Positions 1 to 10,013 of a stretch of DNA of 10,013 bases are shown here, piece after piece. The stretch's first letter is position 1; every line of letters begins with the position of its first letter. This DNA comes from a virus. Taxonomy: Duplodnaviria > Heunggongvirae > Uroviricota > Caudoviricetes. Made by a program: the position numbers and the translations under genes. Below the pieces are notes generated by a model. The model saw only the letters and a program-made list of their open reading frames with translations, was not told the origin of the DNA and did not search any database. The stretch lies in the IMG/VR virus record IMGVR_UViG_2778261352_000004, positions 1 to 10,013 of that record. One strand, given 5' to 3'.

Positions 1-2334
1 TCAGGTTGTCGCAGGGTCGTCACATTTTGGCAGCCAGTCGCCGTAGCTTTCCTCTTTCAGCGTCAGGTTGGTCTGTATCCCCTGTTTGGTATGGCGCTTC
101 TCGTAATTCAGCCCGTATTCCTTCAGCATCACCGGCAGCCCCAGCCCGAACATTTTCAGACTGAGTACATTCCGGTAGCCGTTTGCCTCCATGTAGGCCA
201 GATAGGCGTGATAGAGGTATTTACGGTAATTACGCGGGATGATACTGGCGTTCCCCATATACATGCCGCTGGTCTGCGGCAGGGTTTCCAGATAGCCGAT
301 AAAATCAAACATCGGGTCGGCATCCCGTTTGATGTTCAGTGCCTCGTCTGAGTTCTGCTGGGACTGAAGCAGTGACCGGGCGAGCATCGGGTCGCTGAAC
401 TTCTGCATCAGGTGACGCACGATGACCGCCAGCTCGCGGGTGATTTTGTCCTTAAGCTGCGGGTCGCGCTCCTGCGGGGCTATCTGTTCCGGGAAGTGAA
501 TAATCACCCGCCGGCGTGACACGCCGCCGCTGCGGTCGGTGAAGCGCATCGGGTTATTGTTCACGGCCAGAATCACCGCCGGGATGTGCGTGGAGTACGC
601 ATCCCGGTATTTCGGGTCAACGGACACCGCATCGCCGCCGGTGATGGCCTTGAGTCCGGCTCCGTCGCCGCTCCATTTTTCCTGGTCCGGCAGGCGTATC
701 AGTGAGAAGCCAGTTAACGCGGCACGTTCACGCGGGGATTCCAGCGTCTCGATGGTGGCCGACGTGGCGTTATCCTCCCCGGCCAGCAGGGTGGCTATTT
801 CGGCCATGATACTTTTGCCGCTGCCGCCGGGACCGGTCACCTCCAGAAAGAGCTGCCAGTCGTAGCGGTTTGCCAGCACCATAAACAGTGCGGCCAGAAT
901 CACGTCGCGTTTTTCCGCACGGCCACCGGCGGCACGGTCAAGCCAGCGCCAGAACGCGGGGGCGTGGGTTTCCAGCGTTTCCCCTTCCACCGGCGGGGTG
1001 AAATCCACATCGCACAGGGTGCGCATCCAGTGTGACGGACTGTGCGGGTGGAACGTGCCGTTCTGCGTGTCGAGCACGCCGTTACGAAAGCCAATCAGGC
1101 GGCGGGAGGGGGCTTCCTGCTGCGGAATAATCAGCTTCAGGGTGTCCACCACGGAGGCCACTTTCCCGGAGGAGAACGGCGCGCGCAGACGCTGAAACAG
1201 CCCGGCCACATCCCGGGCAAAGTCCTGTGGTGGCAGTACCTTCCAGACACCATTTTCATAGCGGGACAGAAGCTGGCCGTTGGCATCGACCGCGAGCGCC
1301 TCGCCGTAATGCTCATAGATACGCATGGCCTTTTCGCTGGTACTCATGGCGGAAAACTCCGCTTCGCTCATGGTGTCGAACGGGCTTTCAGCCGGTGGCC
1401 GGATGGCATCATAAATGGCCTTACGGGTGGCTTCCCCGCCGTACTGCGTGAAGGCATCATTCCAGTCACCGAAGACCGGCGGCAGGGCAACAACACCTTC
1501 ACACGCATCTGCGGCTGCGGCGGCTTTTTTCTGGCCGTCACCGCTGAGGTCACGGTCAGCAGCAAGGACAATCTGACAGGCCGGATGCTTCTGCCGGGCA
1601 AGGCTGGCCAGAGAAAGGAGGTTCACGGAAGAAAGCGCCACCATCACCGTTTCACCGGTCAGGTGATGCACGGTAAGTGCGGTCGCGTATCCCTCCGCTA
1701 TCCACAGACGTTTTCCGGCCTGATTCTGTCCTTCAAGGGTGTGACAGGTGCCCCTGACCTGTCCGCCTTTCAGGGTGCGCTTACGGCCGTCAGCACTGAT
1801 TAACTGAAGGTTAACCAGTTCGCCGCTGTCGTCATACAGTGGCACCACAAGGTCACCGGCGCACCAGCTCACGCCACCGGCTCTGTGTGTGCCGGTCAGC
1901 ATCCGGCATTCCCGGCCGGGAAAGCCCTTGCGGGTCAGGTAGGCGTTACCGGTTCCGGGACGGGTTTTTGCCATCAGGGTTTGTGCCAGTGCGGCGGCGT
2001 TCTTCCGGGCAGCGTCTGTTTCAGCGCCGGCGGCGGCCGTCACTGCCGGGTCAGCCGGGGGCAGGCTGCCGGTCACGGCAGCCACCTTTGCGGCCGCGTC
2101 GGACGGGGAAACACCAAACACCTTTTCAACCAGTTTCAGGCCGTCACCGGCACCACACTGATTGCAGTACCAGGTGCCGCGCCCCTCCCTGTCATCAAAA
2201 CGGAAGCGGTCACTCCCGCCACAGACCGGACAGGGCTGATGACGGTTCTTAAGCACCTGAATCCCCAGCGCCGGGAGAATACGCGGCCAGTGGCCGAGCG
2301 CATGGCTGACGGTGGCGGTTACGTTCATTTTCAT
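1..2334 (-). CDS. alpha: P4 alpha-type primase-helicase (origin-binding replication protein), 777 aa, complete
   Basis: N-terminal zinc-binding motif CPVCGG...WYCNQCG (nt 2155-2232); TOPRIM-like acidic residues in LWIAEGYATA...LAADRDLSGDG; Walker A GPGGSGKS (nt 811-834). SD AAGGAG 9 nt upstream of ATG at 2334; stop TGA at 1-3. Length equals recalled P4 alpha. Confidence 0.95.
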   Translation of the reverse strand: MKMNVTATVSHALGHWPRILPALGIQVLKNRHQPCPVCGGSDRFRFDDREGRGTWYCNQCGAGDGLKLVEKVFGVSPSDAAAKVAAVTGSLPPADPAVTAAAGAETDAARKNAAALAQTLMAKTRPGTGNAYLTRKGFPGRECRMLTGTHRAGGVSWCAGDLVVPLYDDSGELVNLQLISADGRKRTLKGGQVRGTCHTLEGQNQAGKRLWIAEGYATALTVHHLTGETVMVALSSVNLLSLASLARQKHPACQIVLAADRDLSGDGQKKAAAAADACEGVVALPPVFGDWNDAFTQYGGEATRKAIYDAIRPPAESPFDTMSEAEFSAMSTSEKAMRIYEHYGEALAVDANGQLLSRYENGVWKVLPPQDFARDVAGLFQRLRAPFSSGKVASVVDTLKLIIPQQEAPSRRLIGFRNGVLDTQNGTFHPHSPSHWMRTLCDVDFTPPVEGETLETHAPAFWRWLDRAAGGRAEKRDVILAALFMVLANRYDWQLFLEVTGPGGSGKSIMAEIATLLAGEDNATSATIETLESPRERAALTGFSLIRLPDQEKWSGDGAGLKAITGGDAVSVDPKYRDAYSTHIPAVILAVNNNPMRFTDRSGGVSRRRVIIHFPEQIAPQERDPQLKDKITRELAVIVRHLMQKFSDPMLARSLLQSQQNSDEALNIKRDADPMFDFIGYLETLPQTSGMYMGNASIIPRNYRKYLYHAYLAYMEANGYRNVLSLKMFGLGLPVMLKEYGLNYEKRHTKQGIQTNLTLKEESYGDWLPKCDDPATT

Positions 2335-2348
2335 GGTGTTGTTCTCCT

Positions 2349-2669
2349 TCAGTGCAGTACCGGCGCTTTTATGTGACGGGCACAGAGTTCATCCATCACA
2401 ACCAGCCCGAGAAAGGACAGCGACGGCGCGGCCTTCAGGGGGCCGGATTCCATTAAATCTTCCAGCAGGGCACAGGCTATCTGACGCCCTTTTTCCTCAC
2501 CGTGCTGGCGCAGATAAAAGCCTTCCAGCTCAGCGGCGATGGCCGCCTCCAGTGACTCAAGGGTAAGATGCGGGTAGCGGTGCTGACGTTCGCACACGGT
2601 CAGCCAGGCACAGGCGACAGCGCGACGGTAAAGGGCAGCGCGTAAGACGGGCGGTAAGGGTGTTTTCAT
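2349..2669 (-). CDS. conserved hypothetical protein, P4 orf106-like (106 aa), immediately upstream of alpha
   Basis: Strong SD GGGAGG 7 nt upstream of ATG; stop TGA overlaps the alpha SD region; same strand and operon as alpha. Size and position match recalled P4 orf106; no function inferable. Confidence 0.7.
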
Positions 2670-2750
2670 TTGCTTTCCTCCCTGTGACAGATGACTGCAT
2701 TCCGTGCCGGTTGCATTAACTGATAAGGCATATCTGCTTCTCCTGAAGAC

Positions 2751-2776
2751 GTGCGTATCCCTGCGCGAATACGCAC
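2751..2776. promoter_or_regulatory. 8-bp perfect inverted repeat (GTGCGTAT-N10-ATACGCAC) between the orf151-like and orf106-like genes; possible attenuator, terminator or protein-binding site
   Basis: Read directly: gtgcgtat 2751-2758, loop 2759-2768, atacgcac 2769-2776. On the plus strand it is followed by ATTTAATTTTT; on the coding (minus) strand there is no U-tract after it. Confidence 0.3.
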
Positions 2777-2804
2777 ATTTAATTTTTCGGGTGTCGTTTT
2801 TTAA

Positions 2805-3260
2805 TTACAGATAATTGCGGTAACTGTTATCCGGGGTGATTTCCGGGTCAGGCTCCGTGCGGGGAATTTCCCGCCATTCCCGCGCCACCGGTGCCGCCCG
2901 GCTGACCGGAACAGGGTCCTGCGGGTAAATATCCAGATATTTCTCCCGCCATTTCTGTAATTCCGGGTCTCCGGCCATTTCTTTCAGTACCGCATGCCGG
3001 TTTACGGGGCTGCGTTTAAACAGGTCAGGACGGTCACAGGTAAATTCCCGCAGAAAACGCCCCAGCGGGATGTCTGTGGTGCGCCCGTCGGCGAGGATAC
3101 GCACAAGGATACTGAATTTACGGCGGTACGGATTCCAGACAATGTCCGGGCAGCGGTACGGCATTTCCCACGGAATACCGTCTTCCAGAATGCCGACCAC
3201 GGCCACATCGGGAAAACCGGCAGAACGGTAAATCTCACCGGGCTGGGGAAAATCAAACAT
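2805..3260 (-). CDS. conserved hypothetical protein, P4 orf151-like (151 aa)
   Basis: ATG at 3260-3258 overlaps the last codons of the upstream 95-aa gene (stop TGA 3255-3253); stop TAA at 2807-2805. Same strand as alpha operon; size matches recalled P4 orf151. Confidence 0.7.
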   Translation of the reverse strand: MFDFPQPGEIYRSAGFPDVAVVGILEDGIPWEMPYRCPDIVWNPYRRKFSILVRILADGRTTDIPLGRFLREFTCDRPDLFKRSPVNRHAVLKEMAGDPELQKWREKYLDIYPQDPVPVSRAAPVAREWREIPRTEPDPEITPDNSYRNYL

Positions 3261-3540
3261 GCGTCCTGTCTCCCCGGTCTTTCTGCTGGGCGAGAAAATC
3301 GCGGCACAGGCCTTTGGCTTTCAGCTCATTCAGCACAAAATCAATATCTTCATTCAGGTAGCTGAAAATATGCGGAATGTAGAGCTGATGCAGGCCGGAG
3401 AGTTCACGGTGAATCAAATCACCCCCAACAAACTGGGATACGGCGCTGGCGCGGTTGAGCTTATGGTAAGCCTCAATGCTGAGGTGTTCACGGGCGTCAT
3501 GACGCGCTGAGACGGTCTGAGGGGCTTTTTTATTACGCAC
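3253..3540 (-). CDS. 95-aa left-operon protein; candidate epsilon-like (helper derepression) gene by position and size only
   Basis: GTG start at 3540-3538 preceded by strong SD GGAGGTG with about 6-nt spacing; in-frame ATGs further upstream lack any SD. Start overlaps the stop of the kil-position ORF and stop overlaps the orf151-like start. No motif recognised. Confidence 0.45.
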
Positions 3541-3730
3541 GGGACACCTCCACCACCGGCAGACGGGCAGCAAGGGAGAGCACATAGTCACGGACAAGGG
3601 AACGGCGGGCGCTGCGTTCATCACCGGCGACGGTGCGAAGCATACAGATACGGGGATGACGGTCTGCGCGACGGACAGCCGCAAACACAAAGACAAATTC
3701 AGGGTGTGAGGGGGTAAGGGTCGTAGCCAT
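3533..3730 (-). CDS. 65-aa first gene of the left (immunity-controlled) operon; kil-position small protein
   Basis: ATG at 3730-3728 with strong SD GGAGG 7 nt upstream (3742-3738); stop TAA 3535-3533. The same frame stays open upstream to 4168, so a longer nested form cannot be excluded. Confidence 0.45.
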
Positions 3731-3802
3731 AAGGCAACCTCCGATAACAGCGTAAATGACGCTATCGCCGGAGTTCTCACGCTCGATGGCGATAGCCCAG
3801 AC

Positions 3803-3831
3803 GGGGGTGAGAATACCGGCGTTATCGGAAA
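3803..3831 (-). promoter_or_regulatory. antisense-type element in the immunity leader, complementary to two sense repeats (3995-4025 and 3741-3780)
   Basis: Minus-sense RNA here reads UUUCCGAUAACGCCGGUAUUCUCACCCCC. Its CCGAUAAC and UUCUCAC blocks are exact complements of GUUAUCGG and GUGAGAA, which occur in both flanking repeats; 13 of 15 contiguous nt pair with the copy abutting the kil-position SD. Confidence 0.3.
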
Positions 3832-3969
3832 CCGGCCAGCCCGGAGGCTGCCCCGCCTGAGCTACCATTGACTCAGTGGCATAACATGCGATTGCGAACA
3901 GGATCATACCTGCACGGCAAACCACACGCCACACCATAATCTGGTGCTCTGTGGCGTTGATTGCGACAC

Positions 3970-3991
3970 AAAAAAAGACGCATGGCGCGTC
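3970..3991 (-). terminator. Rho-independent terminator in the immunity leader (hairpin GACGC-GCCAU-GCGUC followed by U7)
   Basis: On the minus strand: 5-bp GC-rich stem (plus 3977-3981 / 3987-3991) immediately followed by seven T (plus-strand A-run 3970-3976). Lies about 130 nt downstream of the vis stop. Confidence 0.55.
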
Positions 3992-4047
3992 ATATGTCGC
4001 CGATAACATACTCGGGTTCTCACGCCCGGCTGCCGATTTTGCGGCAG
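3970..4047 (-). ncRNA. candidate small structured RNA (about 78 nt, promoter-to-terminator unit), possibly a P4 CI-like immunity RNA or leader
   Basis: Candidate sigma70 promoter just upstream (4055-4084), then a 7-bp hairpin GCUGCCG-N6-CGGCAGC (4029-4048), further short helices, and the intrinsic terminator at 3970-3991. Contains the sense repeat GUGAGAAC...GUUAUCGG. Confidence 0.3.
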
Positions 4048-4054
4048 CGGAAAA

Positions 4055-4084
4055 ACTATATCCGCAAATGCCGGAAAAAGGCAA
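4055..4084 (-). promoter_or_regulatory. candidate sigma70 promoter (P_LE-like): -35 TTGCCT, 18-bp spacer, -10 TATAGT, reading leftward
   Basis: Read directly on the minus strand: TTGCCT at plus 4084-4079, TATAGT at plus 4060-4055. Motif match only; no expression data. Confidence 0.3.
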
Positions 4085-4119
4085 GCCAGAAAAAGGGAGT
4101 TTTTGCAGAGCGGGCATCA

Positions 4120-4386
4120 TCATGCGTCGTACCCCCGTTTGCGTCCGGCAATGCGTCCGGCCATCCATGCGGTGACTTCAGAGTGCAGCCAGGCCACATT
4201 TTTACCGCCAAGACTCACCTGCGGCGGAAATTCCCCCTTACGGATGAGTTCATAGATGGTCGAGCGTGACAGGCCGCACAGGTGCATCACTTCCGGCAGA
4301 CGTAAAAAACGCTCCTGCGTGATGTCCGGCAGCGGCATCAGTGGCGTCACAGGGGCGGGAGACGGGGAAGAAAAAACAGCTTGCAT
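4120..4386 (-). CDS. vis: Vis/AlpA-family DNA-binding regulator (excisionase-like), 88 aa; P4 orf88/vis equivalent
   Basis: Protein carries the AlpA-family signature region FLRLPEV...[17 protein letters not shown]...[21 protein letters not shown] 5 nt upstream of ATG at 4386; stop TGA 4122-4120. Confidence 0.9.
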
Positions 4387-4488
4387 CGGGCTACCTCGTT
4401 AATGTCCATACAGCACCGGATAAGTCCGTCCGGCTTCGGGTAGCGCTTTATTTTGTGAATATTTTTGGCAGACGCAACAGGGGGGATT

Positions 4489-4506
4489 TGTTCCGGCAGC
4501 CTTACA
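4489..4506. promoter_or_regulatory. TGT-N12-ACA dyad upstream of vis; candidate Delta/Ogr activator site of the leftward late promoter (P_LL-like)
   Basis: Read directly: TGT 4489-4491, 12-nt spacer, ACA 4504-4506; a TGT-N11-ACA near-copy lies at 4512-4528. The consensus is recalled from P2/P4 late promoters. Confidence 0.4.
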
Positions 4507-4664
4507 ATGGCTGTGCATTTTTTGTACATCAGCGCCAGATAGCTTTAAAACGCTCTGGAAGGAGCTGGAAAAAATTATAGTGAAATACAAATTGTTTTTT
4601 CTTATTTATTTCAGTGAATTAATAAAAATAAAAAGTAATAAACAGCACAAAAAGCCCATCAACG

Positions 4665-4769
4665 GGTGAACAGTGGTGAACAGACGGTGAACAGTCATTA
4701 CTGCGATTGTTCACCCTTTAACTTATTGTATTACTTATCTTTTTTCTTATGGTGAACAGAGGTGAACAG
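4665..4769. repeat. origin-like iteron cluster: five direct GGTGAACAG copies plus one inverted TGTTCACC, inside an AT-rich tract (candidate ori, alpha-binding type I iterons)
   Basis: Copies at 4665-4673, 4675-4683, 4686-4694, 4751-4759 and 4761-4769, with inverted TGTTCACC at 4708-4715. Flanked by very AT-rich sequence from about 4575 to 4800. The octamer TGTTCACC is recalled as the P4 alpha-binding iteron. Confidence 0.7.
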
Positions 4770-4847
4770 TAAAATATAAAAAAACAAACAGTAAGCCGGT
4801 TTTTCCTGCGACCTTTTCCTGGCTTGCCGGTCTGAGGATGAGTCTCC

Positions 4848-4865
4848 TGTGTCAGGGCTGGCACA
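4848..4865. promoter_or_regulatory. TGT-N12-ACA dyad about 75-90 nt upstream of sid; candidate Delta/Ogr-activated P_sid promoter element
   Basis: Read directly: TGT 4848-4850, 12-nt spacer, ACA 4863-4865, placed where a -55-centred activator site for a start near 4910 would sit. Confidence 0.45.
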
Positions 4866-4937
4866 TCTGCAATGCGTCGTGTTGTTGTCCGGTGTACGTC
4901 ACAATTTTCTTAACCTGAAGTGACGAGGAGCCGGAAA

Positions 4938-5672
4938 ATGTCTGACAACACCATCCCTGAATATCTGCAACCCGCACTGGCACAACTGGAAAAGGCCAGA
5001 GTCGCTCATCTTGAGAACGCCCGCCTGATGGATGAGACCGTCACGGCCATTGAACGGGCAGAGCAGGAAAAAAATGCGCTGACGCAGGCCGACGGAAACG
5101 ATGATGACGACTGGCGCACGGCCTTTCGTGCAGCCGGTGGTGTCCTGAGCGACGAGCTGAAACAGCGCCACATTGAGCGCGTGGCACGCCGGGAGCTGGT
5201 ACAGGAATATGACAATCTGGCCGTGGTGCTGAATTTTGAACGTGAACGCCTGAAAGGGGCGTGTGACAGCACGGCCACCGCCTACCGGAAGGCACATCAT
5301 CATCTTCTGAGTCTGTATGCAGAGCATGAGCTGGAACACGCCCTGAATGAAACCTGTGAGGCGCTTGTCCGGGCAATGCATCTGAGCATCCTGGTACAGG
5401 AAAATCCGCTCGCCAACACCACCGGCCATCAGGGCTATGTCGCACCGGAAAAGGCTGTCATGCAGCAGGTGAAATCATCGCTGGAACAGAAAATTAAACA
5501 GATGCAAATCAGCCTCACCGGTGAGCCGGTTCTCCGGCTGACCGGACTGTCAGCGGCAACACTTCCGCACATGGATTATGAGGTGGCAGGCACACCGGCA
5601 CAGCGCAAGGTGTGGCAGGACAAAATAGACCAGCAGGGAGCAGTGCTTAAGGCCAGAGGACTGCTGTCATGA
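4938..5672 (+). CDS. sid: Sid, capsid size-determination (external scaffold) protein, 244 aa
   Basis: ATG at 4938 with SD GAGGAG 8 nt upstream; the GTG at 4920 in the ORF track has no SD. N-terminus MSDNTIPEYLQPALAQLEK; stop TGA overlaps the delta start in an ATGA junction (5669-5672). Length matches recalled P4 Sid. Confidence 0.92.
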   Translation: MSDNTIPEYLQPALAQLEKARVAHLENARLMDETVTAIERAEQEKNALTQADGNDDDDWRTAFRAAGGVLSDELKQRHIERVARRELVQEYDNLAVVLNFERERLKGACDSTATAYRKAHHHLLSLYAEHELEHALNETCEALVRAMHLSILVQENPLANTTGHQGYVAPEKAVMQQVKSSLEQKIKQMQISLTGEPVLRLTGLSAATLPHMDYEVAGTPAQRKVWQDKIDQQGAVLKARGLLS

Positions 5673-6169
5673 TTTACTGCCCGTCGTGTGGACATGTTGC
5701 TCACACCCGTCGCGCACATTTCATGGACGATGGCACCAAGATAATGATTGCACAGTGCCGGAATATTTATTGCTCTGCGACATTTGAAGCGAGTGAAAGC
5801 TTTTTCTCTGACTGTAAAGATTCAGGAATGGAATACATTTCAGGCAAACAGAGATACCGCGATTCACTGACGTCAGCCTCCGGCAGTATGAAACGCCCGA
5901 AAAGAATGCTTGTTACCGGATATTGTTGTCGGAGATGTAAAGGCCTTGCACTGTCAAGAACATCGCGACGTCTGTCTCAGGAAGTCACCGAGCGTTTTTA
6001 TGTGTGCACGGATCCGGGCTGTGGTCTGGTGTTTAAAACGCTTCAGACCATCACCCGCTTCATTGTCCGCCCGGTCACGCCGGACGAACTGGCAGAACGC
6101 CTGCATGAAAAACAGGAACTGCCGCCAGTACGGTTAAAAACACAATCATATTCGCTGCGTCTGGAATGA
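5669..6169 (+). CDS. delta: Delta, Ogr-family zinc-finger late-gene transcriptional activator (tandem Ogr-like domains), 166 aa
   Basis: Two Cys-cluster halves (CPSCG...CRNIYC and CCRRC...CTDPGC) typical of duplicated Ogr-like zinc fingers; translationally coupled to sid; length matches recalled P4 Delta. Confidence 0.92.
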   Translation: MIYCPSCGHVAHTRRAHFMDDGTKIMIAQCRNIYCSATFEASESFFSDCKDSGMEYISGKQRYRDSLTSASGSMKRPKRMLVTGYCCRRCKGLALSRTSRRLSQEVTERFYVCTDPGCGLVFKTLQTITRFIVRPVTPDELAERLHEKQELPPVRLKTQSYSLRLE

Positions 6170-6242
6170 GGGCTGCCGGTTAACACCGGCCGTCGCCGCA
6201 CACCGTATTTTTATTCTTCAGCATGATGAGAAAGAGATAACG

Positions 6243-6815
6243 ATGGAAAGCACAGCCTTACAGCAGGCCTTTGACACCTGTCAGAATAACAAAGCAGCAT
6301 GGCTGCAACGCAAAAATGAGCTGGCAGCGGCCGAACAGGAATATCTGCGGCTTCTGTCAGGAGAAGGCAGAAACGTCAGTCGCCTGGACGAATTACGCAA
6401 TATTATCGAAGTCAGAAAATGGCAGGTGAATCAGGCCGCCGGTCGTTATATTCGTTCGCATGAAGCCGTTCAGCACATCAGCATCCGCGACCGGCTGAAT
6501 GATTTTATGCAGCAGCACGGCACAGCACTGGCGGCGGCACTGGCACCGGAGCTGATGGGCTACAGTGAGCTGACGGCCATTGCCCGAAACTGTGCCATAC
6601 AGCGTGCCACAGATGCCCTGCGTGAAGCCCTTCTGTCCTGGCTTGCGAAGGGTGAAAAAATTAATTATTCCGTACAGGATAGCGACATTTTAACGGCCAT
6701 CGGATTCAGGCCTGACGCGGCTTCGGTGGATGACAGCCGTGAAAAATTCACTCCTGCGCAGAACATGATTTTTTCGCGTAAAAGTGCGCAACTGGCATCA
6801 CGTCAGTCTGTGTAA
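6243..6815 (+). CDS. psu: Psu, polarity suppression protein (Rho antagonist / capsid decoration), 190 aa
   Basis: Position after delta and about 165 bp before cos; length matches recalled P4 Psu; N-terminus MESTALQQAFDTCQNNKAAWLQRKNELAAAEQEY. Confidence 0.9.
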   Translation: MESTALQQAFDTCQNNKAAWLQRKNELAAAEQEYLRLLSGEGRNVSRLDELRNIIEVRKWQVNQAAGRYIRSHEAVQHISIRDRLNDFMQQHGTALAAALAPELMGYSELTAIARNCAIQRATDALREALLSWLAKGEKINYSVQDSDILTAIGFRPDAASVDDSREKFTPAQNMIFSRKSAQLASRQSV

Positions 6816-6845
6816 AATTCCCCGAAAATCCGCCCGTTTTTACTG

Positions 6846-6890
6846 AAAAAAGCCATGCATCGATAAGGTGCATGGCTTTGCATGCGTTTT
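6846..6890 (+). terminator. candidate intrinsic terminator of the sid-delta-psu operon (9-bp stem AGCCATGCA/TGCATGGCT, 9-nt loop, T-rich tail)
   Basis: Stem 6851-6859 / 6869-6877, followed by TTGCATGCGTTTT; an A-run precedes it, so it may act in both directions. Confidence 0.45.
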
Positions 6891-6979
6891 CCTGCCTCAT
6901 TTTCTGCAGACCGCGCCATTCCCGGCGCAGCCTGAGCGTGACTGTGCAACTGCATTAAAACCGCCCTGCAAAGCGGGCG

Positions 6980-6998
6980 GGCGAGGCGGGGAAAGCAC
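6980..6998. other. cos site: 19-nt P2/P4-type cohesive-end sequence GGCGAGGCGGGGAAAGCAC, uncleaved
   Basis: Exact 19-mer read at 6980-6998, preceded by inverted repeat CCGCCC-N8-GGGCGG (6961-6980). Matches the cohesive end as I recall it for P2/186/P4; spacing from the psu stop fits P4. Confidence 0.75.
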
Positions 6999-7102
6999 TG
7001 CGCGTTAGACTTAACTAAAGTGATTGATTCAGATGCTAAAAACGCGTAGAAAAAGGAATGCAACTACCCCTATCAGTGCTCCTCTTGAAGGATAAATAAA
7101 AA

Positions 7103-8788
7103 ATGAGCATTATTCACGTAAATCAAATTGGCAGTAAAGTTAAGGCATTATTTGCTGATAAAATTGATAACAGTGATCTCAATCATAAAGATAAAGAAAT
7201 ACAAACTAAAATATTGACTCGTTGTCTTTCTGCTTACGCTGTTTTTTGTATTGGAGATACCTCGATAGATGAGGCTGCGTCAGCAGTTGTTGATGGTGCC
7301 GATGATAATGGTATCGATGCAATTCATTATTCTCCTTCAAGTAAGAGGATGATTATTGTTCAATCTAAATGGAAAAAGGATGGAACAGGAGAACCTGATA
7401 ATGGTGATTTGAGGAAGTTTAAAGATGGTGTATTAGACCTCATTAATCTTGAGCTTGATAAATTTAATAACAAAGTAAATCTAAAAAAACAGATGATTGA
7501 AACAGCTTTGGGTGAGTTTGATACAAAATTTGATCTTGTTTTAATTCACACAGGTGCGAATACTCTAAGCAAACATAACCAACAAGTAATGGATTCAATT
7601 CTTAATGAATTAAACGATGCCGGTGATGGAACCAGTGAGGATGTTGTTAGTTTCCACCATCTGAATCAAGCGATAATTCATAGTGGTCTTGCCTCTGGTA
7701 TGGATGGGGAACCAATCGATTTGGAAATCGGTCTTTCACAATGGGGAAAAATTGAAGAGCCACATCAAGGTTTTTTCGGGATTGTAGCTGGTGAGGAGGT
7801 TGCAAATTGGTGGTTAAAAAAAGGGAAAAGACTATTTGCCAAAAATATTAGGCAAATGTTAGGTGCTACTGAAGTTAATGATGAGGTTAAGAGAACAATT
7901 GAGGAACAACCTGAGAATTTTTGGTATTACAATAATGGTATAACTATTGTTGCTGAATCTATAAAAAAATCGATGGTTGGTGGAAATAGTAGAGATATTG
8001 GTTCGTTTAAAGCGAGTAATATAAGCATTGTTAATGGTGCTCAGACTGTAAGCGTAATTGGTAAATATTCGCAAGAAGGAGGGGCAAATCTTGCTAAATT
8101 GCGTTTACCTATCCGATTGATTTCATTAGAAGGTGCGCCAGAAGACTTTGGTGCAAATGTGACAAAAACTAATAACCGTCAAAATAGAATCGAAAGCAGA
8201 GACTTTGTTTCCTTAGATGATGAGCAAATCCGGTTAAAAAGAGAACTATCCTTGGAGGGGATTGAGTATAATATAGTAAGGAGTGAGAATGTTAAGACAT
8301 CGGCTAGCATAATCGATTTATCTGAAGCGACCATTGCATTGGCTTGTGCGTCTACGCAGGTGGGTTTAGCAGTTCAAGCGAAAAGAGAAATAGGTCGATT
8401 CTATGACAATCTTAATAAAGCGCCATATAAAACAATTTTCAACCCGCAAACCAATGGTATTTATTTACGAAATACGGTATTTGCATTACGAAAAATAGAT
8501 GAAATAATTGGCGAAATGATTGCGAACATACCTAAAAAATCTGGTAAAGAGTATGGTGTTCTTGTTCATGGGAATAGGATGTTGGCATTTTTGGTTTTTA
8601 GAAAGTTGATGATACATAAAATCGCAAATAACTTTGATTTTGATATGTCTTCAATTGATTGGTATGAAACCACATCAGATATGCTTGAGAAATTGATGTC
8701 GGAAATTGAAGAGAATTATAAGGATAAGTTTCTTGCTACTTTATTTAAGAACGCAAGTATTTGTAAGGCTATATCCGAGAAAATATAA
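7103..8788 (+). CDS. hotspot cargo: 561-aa protein with N-terminal Mrr-type PD-(D/E)xK nuclease-like motif and AIPR-like (abortive infection) features; candidate single-gene anti-phage defence protein
   Basis: Single long ORF in a strongly AT-rich block flanked by GC-rich satellite DNA. N-terminal GADDNGIDAIHY...MIIVQSKW (D-G-I-D ... Q-x-K; Q87/K89 at 7361-7369). Also WYYNNGIT (7922-7945) and IVNGAQT (from 8027), which I recall as AIPR-type motifs. SD-like AAGGA upstream; stop TAA 8786-8788. Family assignment is from memory of motif patterns, not a search. Confidence 0.55.
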   Translation: MSIIHVNQIGSKVKALFADKIDNSDLNHKDKEIQTKILTRCLSAYAVFCIGDTSIDEAASAVVDGADDNGIDAIHYSPSSKRMIIVQSKWKKDGTGEPDNGDLRKFKDGVLDLINLELDKFNNKVNLKKQMIETALGEFDTKFDLVLIHTGANTLSKHNQQVMDSILNELNDAGDGTSEDVVSFHHLNQAIIHSGLASGMDGEPIDLEIGLSQWGKIEEPHQGFFGIVAGEEVANWWLKKGKRLFAKNIRQMLGATEVNDEVKRTIEEQPENFWYYNNGITIVAESIKKSMVGGNSRDIGSFKASNISIVNGAQTVSVIGKYSQEGGANLAKLRLPIRLISLEGAPEDFGANVTKTNNRQNRIESRDFVSLDDEQIRLKRELSLEGIEYNIVRSENVKTSASIIDLSEATIALACASTQVGLAVQAKREIGRFYDNLNKAPYKTIFNPQTNGIYLRNTVFALRKIDEIIGEMIANIPKKSGKEYGVLVHGNRMLAFLVFRKLMIHKIANNFDFDMSSIDWYETTSDMLEKLMSEIEENYKDKFLATLFKNASICKAISEKI

Positions 8789-8810
8789 TCTGGCACTCCG
8801 TTATATTAAG

Positions 8811-8832
8811 AAATGCCGCTTATGCGGCATTT
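8811..8832. terminator. bidirectional hairpin between convergent cargo and integrase genes (AAATGCCGC-TTAT-GCGGCATTT)
   Basis: 9-bp perfect stem with 4-nt loop, 8811-8832, between the cargo stop (8788) and the integrase stop (8841); A/T-rich flanks on both sides. Confidence 0.5.
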
Positions 8833-8840
8833 GTCTATTA

Positions 8841-10013
8841 TCAGAAAAATGAATAGATATAATTACTATACCATTGCATCATAGAGCGTCTTTTCTCTAA
8901 ATACTGAGCATGGTTATATGTTCCACGAATACTATTTTTATCAACATGTGCCAATTGCATTTCAATCCATGAGCTATCAAACCCTTGTTCGTGCAATATT
9001 GTCGACATGGTATGTCGAAAACCGTGGCCTGTAGCACGGCCTTTGTAGCCAAGTAACTCAATTACCTGTGAAACACTTTCTTTTGAGATCGGCTTGCTAC
9101 GATTGTTCCTTCCAATAAAAATGTATGGGTAATGTCCTGTAATAGGTTTGAGTTGTTTAAATAGGGTAATTACCTGTGTAGATAAGGGAACAATGTGTGG
9201 TCTACGCATTTTCATTCTTTCTGCTGGTATTTCCCATATACCCTTTTCCAGGTCTACTTCATTCCATGTGGCAAAGCGCATTTCCTGAGTTCTTATGCCA
9301 GTTAACATGACTATCTTTGTCGCATTTTTAGTGATGATGCTTCCGGTGTATGCTTCAAGATCTTGAATAAAATAAGGCAACTCTTCGGCAGATAAAAATG
9401 GGTGGTGTTTTTGTTTAGGAACGGTCAGAGCGATAGCTAAATCAGGTGCGGGGTTGTATTCAGCTCGGCCAGTTATGATTGCATAACGAAAGACCTCACC
9501 GCATCTTTGGCGCACTTTTCTGGTCTTCTCTAGTGCTCCTCGTTTCTCTATTCGTCGCAACACTTCAAGCAGTTCTAATGGTTTGATTTCACTGATAGGA
9601 CGTTTACCAATGAACGGGAAGACATCTTGCTCGAATGTCTTAATGATTTCTTCTCGATAGGCTACAGTCCAGCGGTCAGCTTTGTTGGTATGCCATTCTC
9701 GACATATTGCTTCGAAAGAATTTTCTATTGATAGCTTTTGAGCGAGTCTTAAAGCTTTGCGTTCCTCTACCGGGTCAATGCCATTAGCAACCTGCTTACG
9801 GGCGATATCACGCTTCTCACGTGCTTCTGCGAGGCTTACTAAATCGTAGCTGCCAAATGACATTAACCGCGCTTTCCCTGCAAACCGGAAACGGAAACGC
9901 CAGCCTTTCGAGCCATCGGGATTGATAAGCAATGACAGACCTTGTCCATCGTTCAATGTGTATGGTTTGTCTTGTGGTTTTGCGCGTTTGATCTGTATAT
10001 CGGTTAGAGCCAT
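8841..10013 (-). CDS. int: tyrosine site-specific integrase (P4-type, N-terminal arm-binding domain), 390 aa, complete
   Basis: ATG at the last three window bases (10013-10011); N-terminus MALTDIQIKRAKPQDKPYTLNDGQGLSL typical of P4-family integrases. Catalytic-type motifs LTGIRTQE, HGFRHT, LAHVD and RGTYNHAQY; stop TGA 8843-8841. Any SD or promoter lies outside the window. Confidence 0.9.
   Translation of the reverse strand: MALTDIQIKRAKPQDKPYTLNDGQGLSLLINPDGSKGWRFRFRFAGKARLMSFGSYDLVSLAEAREKRDIARKQVANGIDPVEERKALRLAQKLSIENSFEAICREWHTNKADRWTVAYREEIIKTFEQDVFPFIGKRPISEIKPLELLEVLRRIEKRGALEKTRKVRQRCGEVFRYAIITGRAEYNPAPDLAIALTVPKQKHHPFLSAEELPYFIQDLEAYTGSIITKNATKIVMLTGIRTQEMRFATWNEVDLEKGIWEIPAERMKMRRPHIVPLSTQVITLFKQLKPITGHYPYIFIGRNNRSKPISKESVSQVIELLGYKGRATGHGFRHTMSTILHEQGFDSSWIEMQLAHVDKNSIRGTYNHAQYLEKRRSMMQWYSNYIYSFF

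Follow-up and report, generated by a model that had tools for sequence, protein, structure and literature searches.

A joined P2/P4-type cos site, probably of a P4-like satellite prophage, bordering a defence-gene hotspot in Escherichia coli

Introduction

The cos site of phage P2 and satellite P4, its 55-bp core, its position beside a gene hotspot and the AIPR locus treated here have all been published, and as such are already known. The conserved unit corresponds to the '55-bp core cos' of Ziermann and Calendar (1990), as cited in later work (PMC2231350, PMC5694545, PMC9594776). Plasmids carrying P4 cos are packaged in vivo (PMC2231350, PMC9594776), with covalently closed circles being the preferred packaging substrate (PMC2231350), and longer flanks around cos have been found to improve transduction (PMC9594776). 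In P4-like satellites and P2-like phages, Rousset et al. (2022, PMC9122126) placed the psu-int hotspot right beside cos, and retron insertions beside the cos of a 186-related prophage were described by Dodd and Egan (1996), as cited in PMC5694545.

In this study, we relate these findings to a viral record of 10,013 nucleotides from IMG/VR, the whole of which we refer to as the window. We compared its putative cos site with the P4, P2 and 186 references, with homologous regions of other viral records and with bacterial genomes, and examined the genes on either side. Taken together, we consider it highly probable that the site is the joined, uncut cos of an approximately 10.7-kb P4-like satellite prophage located at selC in E. 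coli, whose cleavage, packaging and mobility would follow the pattern known from P4.

Results

The sequence GGCGAGGCGGGGAAAGCAC is found at positions 6980-6998 on the + strand, and it occurs only once in the window, even when three mismatches are allowed. No match was seen in any of 200 dinucleotide-preserving shuffles, and the chance expectation is approximately 7e-8 per 10 kb. All 19 positions agree with bases 1-19 of P4 (NC_001609) and with bases 1-19 of P2 (NC_001895), the latter labelled 'cosL; left cohesive end' in the P2 record, which carries the same 19 nt again at its right end as cosR. The counterpart in phage 186 (NC_001317), GGCGTGGCGGGGAAAGCAT, differs at two positions; its record describes these 19 positions with the words 'top strand cut at 5' end and bottom strand cut at 3' end'. 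Further, positions 1-6979 of the window correspond to P4 4636-11624 with 97.4% identity; the last base of the linear P4 record matches window position 6979 and its first base matches 6980. The window therefore carries a joined, uncut cos. From the identity to the P4 and P2 ends, the top-strand nick would be predicted between 6979 and 6980 and the bottom-strand nick between 6998 and 6999, such that the 19 nt enclosed by these terminase nicks (6980..6998, + strand) would form 5'-protruding cohesive ends. An earlier reading of this DNA, made from its sequence only, had proposed that the exact 19-mer is present in uncleaved form, as fits an integrated or circular copy. Our comparison with the cos ends of P2, 186 and P4 bears this out, with the cohesive ends of P4 and P2 identical and only 186 deviating.

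To what extent the 19-mer identifies a cos site depends on the scale of the search. In one genome per species across bacteria (596 Gb, both strands), we found the exact 19-mer 38 times, in 33 cases together with the whole core. These 33 core-bearing matches are from Enterobacteriaceae and from a few metagenome-assembled genomes (MAGs) and isolates with implausible labels. Five of the 38 matches (L134, L135, L151, L154, L164) show no flank similarity, where approximately four would be expected by chance in 596 Gb. Because chance matches without flanks occur at database scale, the bare 19-mer is diagnostic within a 10-kb window and not at that scale; it is the flanks that define the cos site. 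Complete enterobacterial P2/P4 cos cores were present on contigs labelled as Bacillota, Clostridiales and Lachnospiraceae MAGs and as Vagococcus sp. (L133, L139, L149, L156, L158), which are likely to be mis-binned or contaminating. We also considered genuine spread of the 19-mer to distant taxa and rejected it, such matches being either enterobacterial phage contigs with the full core that are probably mis-binned, or chance matches lacking flank similarity.

The block common to the P2 and P4 references extends from TGCATTAAAA to TGCGCGC, that is from -29 to +25 relative to the nick, and measures exactly 55 bp. Its equivalent in the window, delimited by alignment and by the conservation profile, is situated at 6951..7005 and consists of TGCATTAAAACCGCCCTGCAAAGCGGGCG, then the 19-mer, then TGCGCGT; it is the presumed site of recognition and cleavage by a P2-type terminase. 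The window core matches that of P4 at 52/55 positions, that of P2 at 51/55 and that of 186 at 46/55, and P2 and P4 match each other at 52/55, making the core of the window as close to P4 and P2 as these are to each other. To place these values in a wider context, IMG/VR was scanned for GGCGNGGCGGGGAAAGCA, which identified 120 loci; flanks were taken for 118 sites, yielding 113 distinct 319-nt regions, and the cos regions were divided into 18 P4-like (with a Psu homologue upstream) and 100 P2-like. Across the 113 distinct regions, information content is high from approximately -35 to +25 relative to the top-strand nick (window 6945-7005) and low beyond. The conserved unit at 6951-7005 fits the published 55-bp P2/P4 cos core. 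The sequence-only reading had drawn the site more narrowly, at 6961-6998, a span that takes in 38 of the 55 core bp but leaves out TGCATTAAAA at the left edge of the core (6951-6960) and TGCGCGT at its right edge (6999-7005).

Three substitutions separate the window core from that of P4, all of them C to T, at -13, +19 and +25. The T at -13 is also found in 8 of 100 distinct regions, and the T at +19 is common to P2, 186 and 99 of 100 distinct regions. The T at +25 is restricted to 3 of 100 distinct regions, all P4-like, this position being C in P4, P2, 186 and 95 of the 100. In bacterial genomes, a 61-bp cos block was identified at 2919 places in 2135 of 5426 complete E. coli genomes, and it is also present across Enterobacteriaceae.

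Two further features of symmetry are associated with the core. Upstream, a conserved palindrome (6944..6955; consensus ATGCA-AC-TGCAT, here GTGCAACTGCAT) partially overlaps the left edge of the core and extends past the published 55 bp. It is 91-94% conserved in 100 distinct regions, P2-like as well as P4-like; nevertheless, it is probably not essential, because the P2 reference lacks its left half. We also observed a heptamer, GCG(G/C)GC(G/A), directly 5' of both predicted nicks, one per strand (6973-6979 and 6999-7005). With a slash marking the nick, it reads GCGGGCG/G on the top strand, and on the bottom strand GCGCGCA/G in the consensus and ACGCGCA/G in the window. The presence of the heptamer at both nicks therefore gives the site a partial two-fold symmetry around the 19-mer, which is reminiscent of lambda cosN.

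Beside the top-strand nick is a 6-bp inverted repeat (6961..6980), composed of CCGCCC (6961-6966) and GGGCGG (6975-6980) with an 8-nt spacer and 100% complementary arms, whose last G is at the same time base 1 of the 19-mer. In a single-stranded DNA fold, the repeat reaches -8.9 kcal/mol, a modest advantage over shuffled sequence (z = -1.97), with 8 of 200 shuffles folding equally well. The right arm is part of the nick-proximal heptamer GCGGGCG, within an almost invariant AAGCGGGCR abutting the nick, and the left arm is more variable. Among 100 distinct 70-mers, two of the six pairs are often broken on the + strand: pair -18/-1 in 44%, being C-A in 40% of sequences, and pair -16/-3 in 35%, being A-G in 34%. 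Two-sided change was found in only 2 of the 100, as T-A at pair -18/-1. Since there is almost no compensatory change and two of six pairs are often broken, the repeat is better read as a duplex recognition sequence inside the core than as an independently selected hairpin. A conserved hairpin or cruciform kept by compensatory change was accordingly rejected as a selected structure, given that two-sided change is limited to those two sequences. The sequence-only reading had described an inverted repeat adjacent to the cos site. The repeat does exist, but it is situated inside the conserved core and does not represent a separate structural element.

We also considered whether the repeat doubles as an intrinsic terminator of the minus strand, which would shield psu and the late operon (old/tin in P2) from transcription running leftward across cos out of the variable region. 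A scan did call a terminator-like site on the - strand, formed by CCGCCCGCTTTGCAGGGCGG and then TTTTAATGCA (a hairpin followed by TTTTAAT), but one such site was found where 0.5 were expected, which is not significant. As - strand RNA, the hairpin folds at -8 kcal/mol or below in 88% of the 100 P2-like and 94% of the 18 P4-like regions, and the frequent G-to-A change at -1 would be tolerated as a U-G wobble on this strand only. Against this, the C-to-A change at -16, seen in 34% of regions, breaks the pair on both strands and is uncompensated, two-sided change being confined to two sequences, and conservation of the terminase core is enough to account for both the T-run and the right arm. Cargo genes are found in either orientation (PMC9122126), which speaks for such shielding; in the window, however, no - strand gene points at cos, and the AIPR gene is on the + strand. 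In our view a terminator function is therefore unlikely. A broader structural role, in which the repeat together with the heptamer symmetry would act as a cruciform in supercoiled circles or as a minus-strand terminator insulating the conserved genes from the cargo, appears very unlikely to us. Were the cruciform reading true, it would help to explain the preference of P2-type terminase for closed circular substrates. We thus retain the reading of the repeat as part of a duplex recognition sequence.

The left flank of the site is that of a P4-like satellite, the core set of which (alpha, epsilon, vis/alpA, sid, delta, psu, int) is present in P4 order. Using tblastn, identity to the P4 proteins was 99.0% for alpha, 100% for orf106, 98.7% for orf151, 98.9% for epsilon, 84.8% for the cI region, 98.9% for orf88/vis, 98.0% for sid, 97.6% for delta, 98.4% for psu and 37% for int. 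The P4 genes from alpha to psu are all full length, at 97.6-100% amino acid identity to P4 except for the cI region (85%). The same search with P4 proteins gave no match in the window for gop, beta or cII. The sid gene (4938-5672, + strand; capsid size determination) and the delta gene (5669-6169, + strand; transactivator of helper late genes, Pfam Ogr_Delta) are both intact, with no indels relative to P4 in the nucleotide alignment. They are followed by psu (6243..6815, + strand; Pfam Psu, E = 1.2e-88), which encodes a capsid-decoration and polarity-suppression protein; no further conserved satellite gene lies between it and cos. Between psu and cos lies a hairpin (6849..6881, + strand) with the features of an intrinsic terminator closing the late operon: perfect arms of 10 nt, 13 bp in the predicted fold (DNA fold -12.8 kcal/mol, z = -3.9), T-rich sequence behind it and conservation in P4. 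It is likely to be the terminator of the sid-delta-psu operon, and + strand transcription therefore probably does not cross cos.

The cI/immunity region (3536-3940, - strand) stands apart from its neighbours, having 85% amino acid identity to P4 where the neighbouring genes have 98-100%, which suggests a different immunity type. The RefSeq name for an ORF overlapping this region is 'Icd-like cell division inhibitor'.

Over 10 kb, the window is 99.96% identical to a region of E. coli 08-00022 (NZ_CP013662, L003), with three substitutions and one indel, and positions 6600-9000 are found at approximately 100% identity in five complete E. coli genomes. In NZ_CP013662, the element adjoins tRNA-Sec (selC) and the crr repeats are situated just past the left end of the window. 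A 23-nt att direct repeat, TTTGGCGGAAGATCACAGGAGTC, is present there in two copies identical at 22/23 positions (L003 2903-2925 and 13574-13596). The element size of approximately 10.7 kb was measured between these att repeats in NZ_CP013662, as the window stops short of the element ends. The far boundary of the hotspot is formed by a tyrosine integrase specific for tRNA-Sec (selC) (8841..10013, - strand; Pfam Arm-DNA-bind_3, Phage_int_M and Phage_integrase). This integrase is 37% identical to P4 Int, and its target is selC and not leuX, while the rest of the element is approximately 98% identical to P4; the difference from P4 in integrase and att thus represents a module swap.

The sid gene of E. 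coli 08-00022 carries a 1-nt deletion (the A at window position 5068) and is designated 'frameshifted' in RefSeq, a change specific to this strain. A frameshifted sid in the window itself was considered and rejected, as sid aligns to P4 without an indel. The frameshift in the nearly identical 08-00022 element nevertheless means that some copies of this satellite lineage are decaying.

To the right of cos, similarity among related elements ends abruptly. Pairwise comparison of the 18 P4-like loci gave median identities of 0.88 from -135 to -36, 0.95 in the core and 0.27 from +26 to +125. Between P4-like and P2-like loci, the corresponding medians are 0.42, 0.90 and 0.27, and the core is the sole common part. 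Because conservation among P4-like loci stops approximately 26 bp past the top-strand nick, the variable psu-int defence hotspot has its left border, judged by this profile, at the end of the cos core. That cos marks the hotspot boundary had been part of the sequence-only reading, and it holds up well, with identity in the 18 P4-like loci falling from 0.95 in the core to 0.27 in the next 100 bp.

The single hotspot cargo between cos and int is a 561-aa gene of the AIPR/AbiU family (7103..8788, + strand; Pfam AIPR PF10592, E = 1.4e-32; PADLOC AbiU, E = 1.2e-33), which takes the place of P4 gop-beta-cII. Its product is named 'AIPR family protein' in RefSeq (WP_032211572), and NZ_CP013662 with AIPR WP_032211572 is included in Table S1A of Rousset et al. 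(2022, PMC9122126). Table S2A of the same work ('validated defense systems') includes pFR77 from E. coli E1167 (PMC9122126), for which the authors cloned the psu 3' end, cos and the stretch leading to AIPR, with expression from the native promoter (PMC9122126). We found the cloned pFR77 sequence to have the identical 19-mer and cos-to-AIPR junction. A simple scan of the stretch from cos to the AIPR start codon (6999-7102) found no sigma-70-like promoter on the + strand.

Two ORFs overlap cos, at 6868-7008 (+ strand) and 6803-7063 (- strand), of 46 and 86 aa, respectively; neither has a Pfam match, and they should not be called genes. In several deposited records of P2-like phages, a 'hypothetical protein' has been placed across the homologous cos region, which is probably over-annotation.

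Discussion

To discern what this site could do, it is important to consider which parts of the element act on it. By homology with P4 and P2, activation of a P2-like helper would be followed by excision of the satellite from selC via Int and Vis, and replication by the alpha primase-helicase with ori and crr would generate covalently closed circles. In these, the 55-bp core at 6951-7005 would be recognised by the terminase of the helper (P2 gpM and gpP), which would nick between 6979 and 6980 on the top strand and between 6998 and 6999 on the bottom strand, yielding linear DNA with 19-nt 5' cohesive ends. This DNA would be threaded into small capsids, with Sid setting their size and Psu supporting their stability. 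In a newly injected cell, the ends would anneal and be ligated, restoring the sequence as it stands in the window.

The sequence-only reading had taken sid, delta and psu as a sign that the element is packageable. That these genes are intact, at 97.6-98.4% amino acid identity to P4, was confirmed, but terminase recognition depends on cos and not on them. Sid, Delta and Psu support the notion of a functional satellite; they do not make the DNA a terminase substrate. According to the literature, the terminase acts on closed circles, so that functions for excision and replication are required as well. Of these, the window has intact alpha, vis (orf88) and epsilon genes at 99% identity to P4 and an intact int at 37% identity to P4 Int, and crr and the att repeats are found in the 99.96% identical NZ_CP013662. 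It appears that the carrier would be able to form the covalently closed circular substrate.

An alternative to a mobile satellite is that cos is intact but the element itself is domesticated or defective, fixed at selC as a defence island, with the site persisting as a recent, unused relic. The 99.96% identical copy in E. coli 08-00022, with its 1-nt deletion frameshifting sid, is in keeping with such decay, as is the deviation at +25 from a near-invariant C. The force of the first point is reduced by the fact that loss of sid is not known to abolish P4 packaging, the DNA then going into large heads. Moreover, the P4 genes from alpha to psu are all full length with 97.6-100% identity outside the cI region (85%), int is intact, the related genome NZ_CP013662 contains crr and the att repeats, and the core is as close to P4 and P2 as P4 and P2 are mutually. 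We therefore regard an unused relic as quite unlikely. A chance match, or an origin in a P2-like helper prophage rather than a satellite, is virtually out of the question and was refuted: bare 19-mers do arise by chance at database scale (5 of 38 exact matches had no flank similarity), yet in the window the 19-mer is unique, the whole 55-bp core is present, the left 7 kb are 97.4% identical to P4, and the right side has an AIPR gene and an integrase instead of P2 portal/terminase genes.

With the site read as the joined cos of a P4-like satellite, the value of this work lies mainly in correct annotation, as cos identifies the element as a P4-like satellite with the potential for mobilisation. 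It also fixes the left border of the defence-gene hotspot of the element.

Among the named systems, the closest locus is that of pFR77 and NZ_CP013662 (Rousset et al. 2022, PMC9122126), which is near-identical and shows no difference of substance at the junction. P4 itself (NC_001609, cos at the junction of bases 11624 and 1) shares the identical 19-nt cohesive end and 52/55 core positions. Its cos is likewise positioned immediately after psu and the terminator, with a left flank from alpha to psu that is 97.4% identical. In contrast, the right flank of P4 is unrelated past +26, carrying gop-beta-cII where the window has the AIPR/AbiU gene, and its target is leuX as opposed to selC, with an Int that is only 37% identical.

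P2 (NC_001895, cosL/cosR) and other Peduoviridae have the identical 19-mer, and in P2 the core agrees at 51/55 positions, with T at +19 as in the window. P2 and P4-like elements are also alike in having a variable accessory-gene hotspot adjoining cos (PMC9122126, PMC5694545). They differ in that the right flank of P2 leads to the portal/terminase genes Q and P and its left flank holds old/tin, and P2-like and P4-like loci have no similarity outside the core (median identity 0.42 on the left, 0.27 on the right). Phage 186 (NC_001317) retains the same architecture and nick positions with a core identity of 46/55; it differs by two positions in GGCGTGGCGGGGAAAGCAT, and its A at -1 weakens the inverted repeat.
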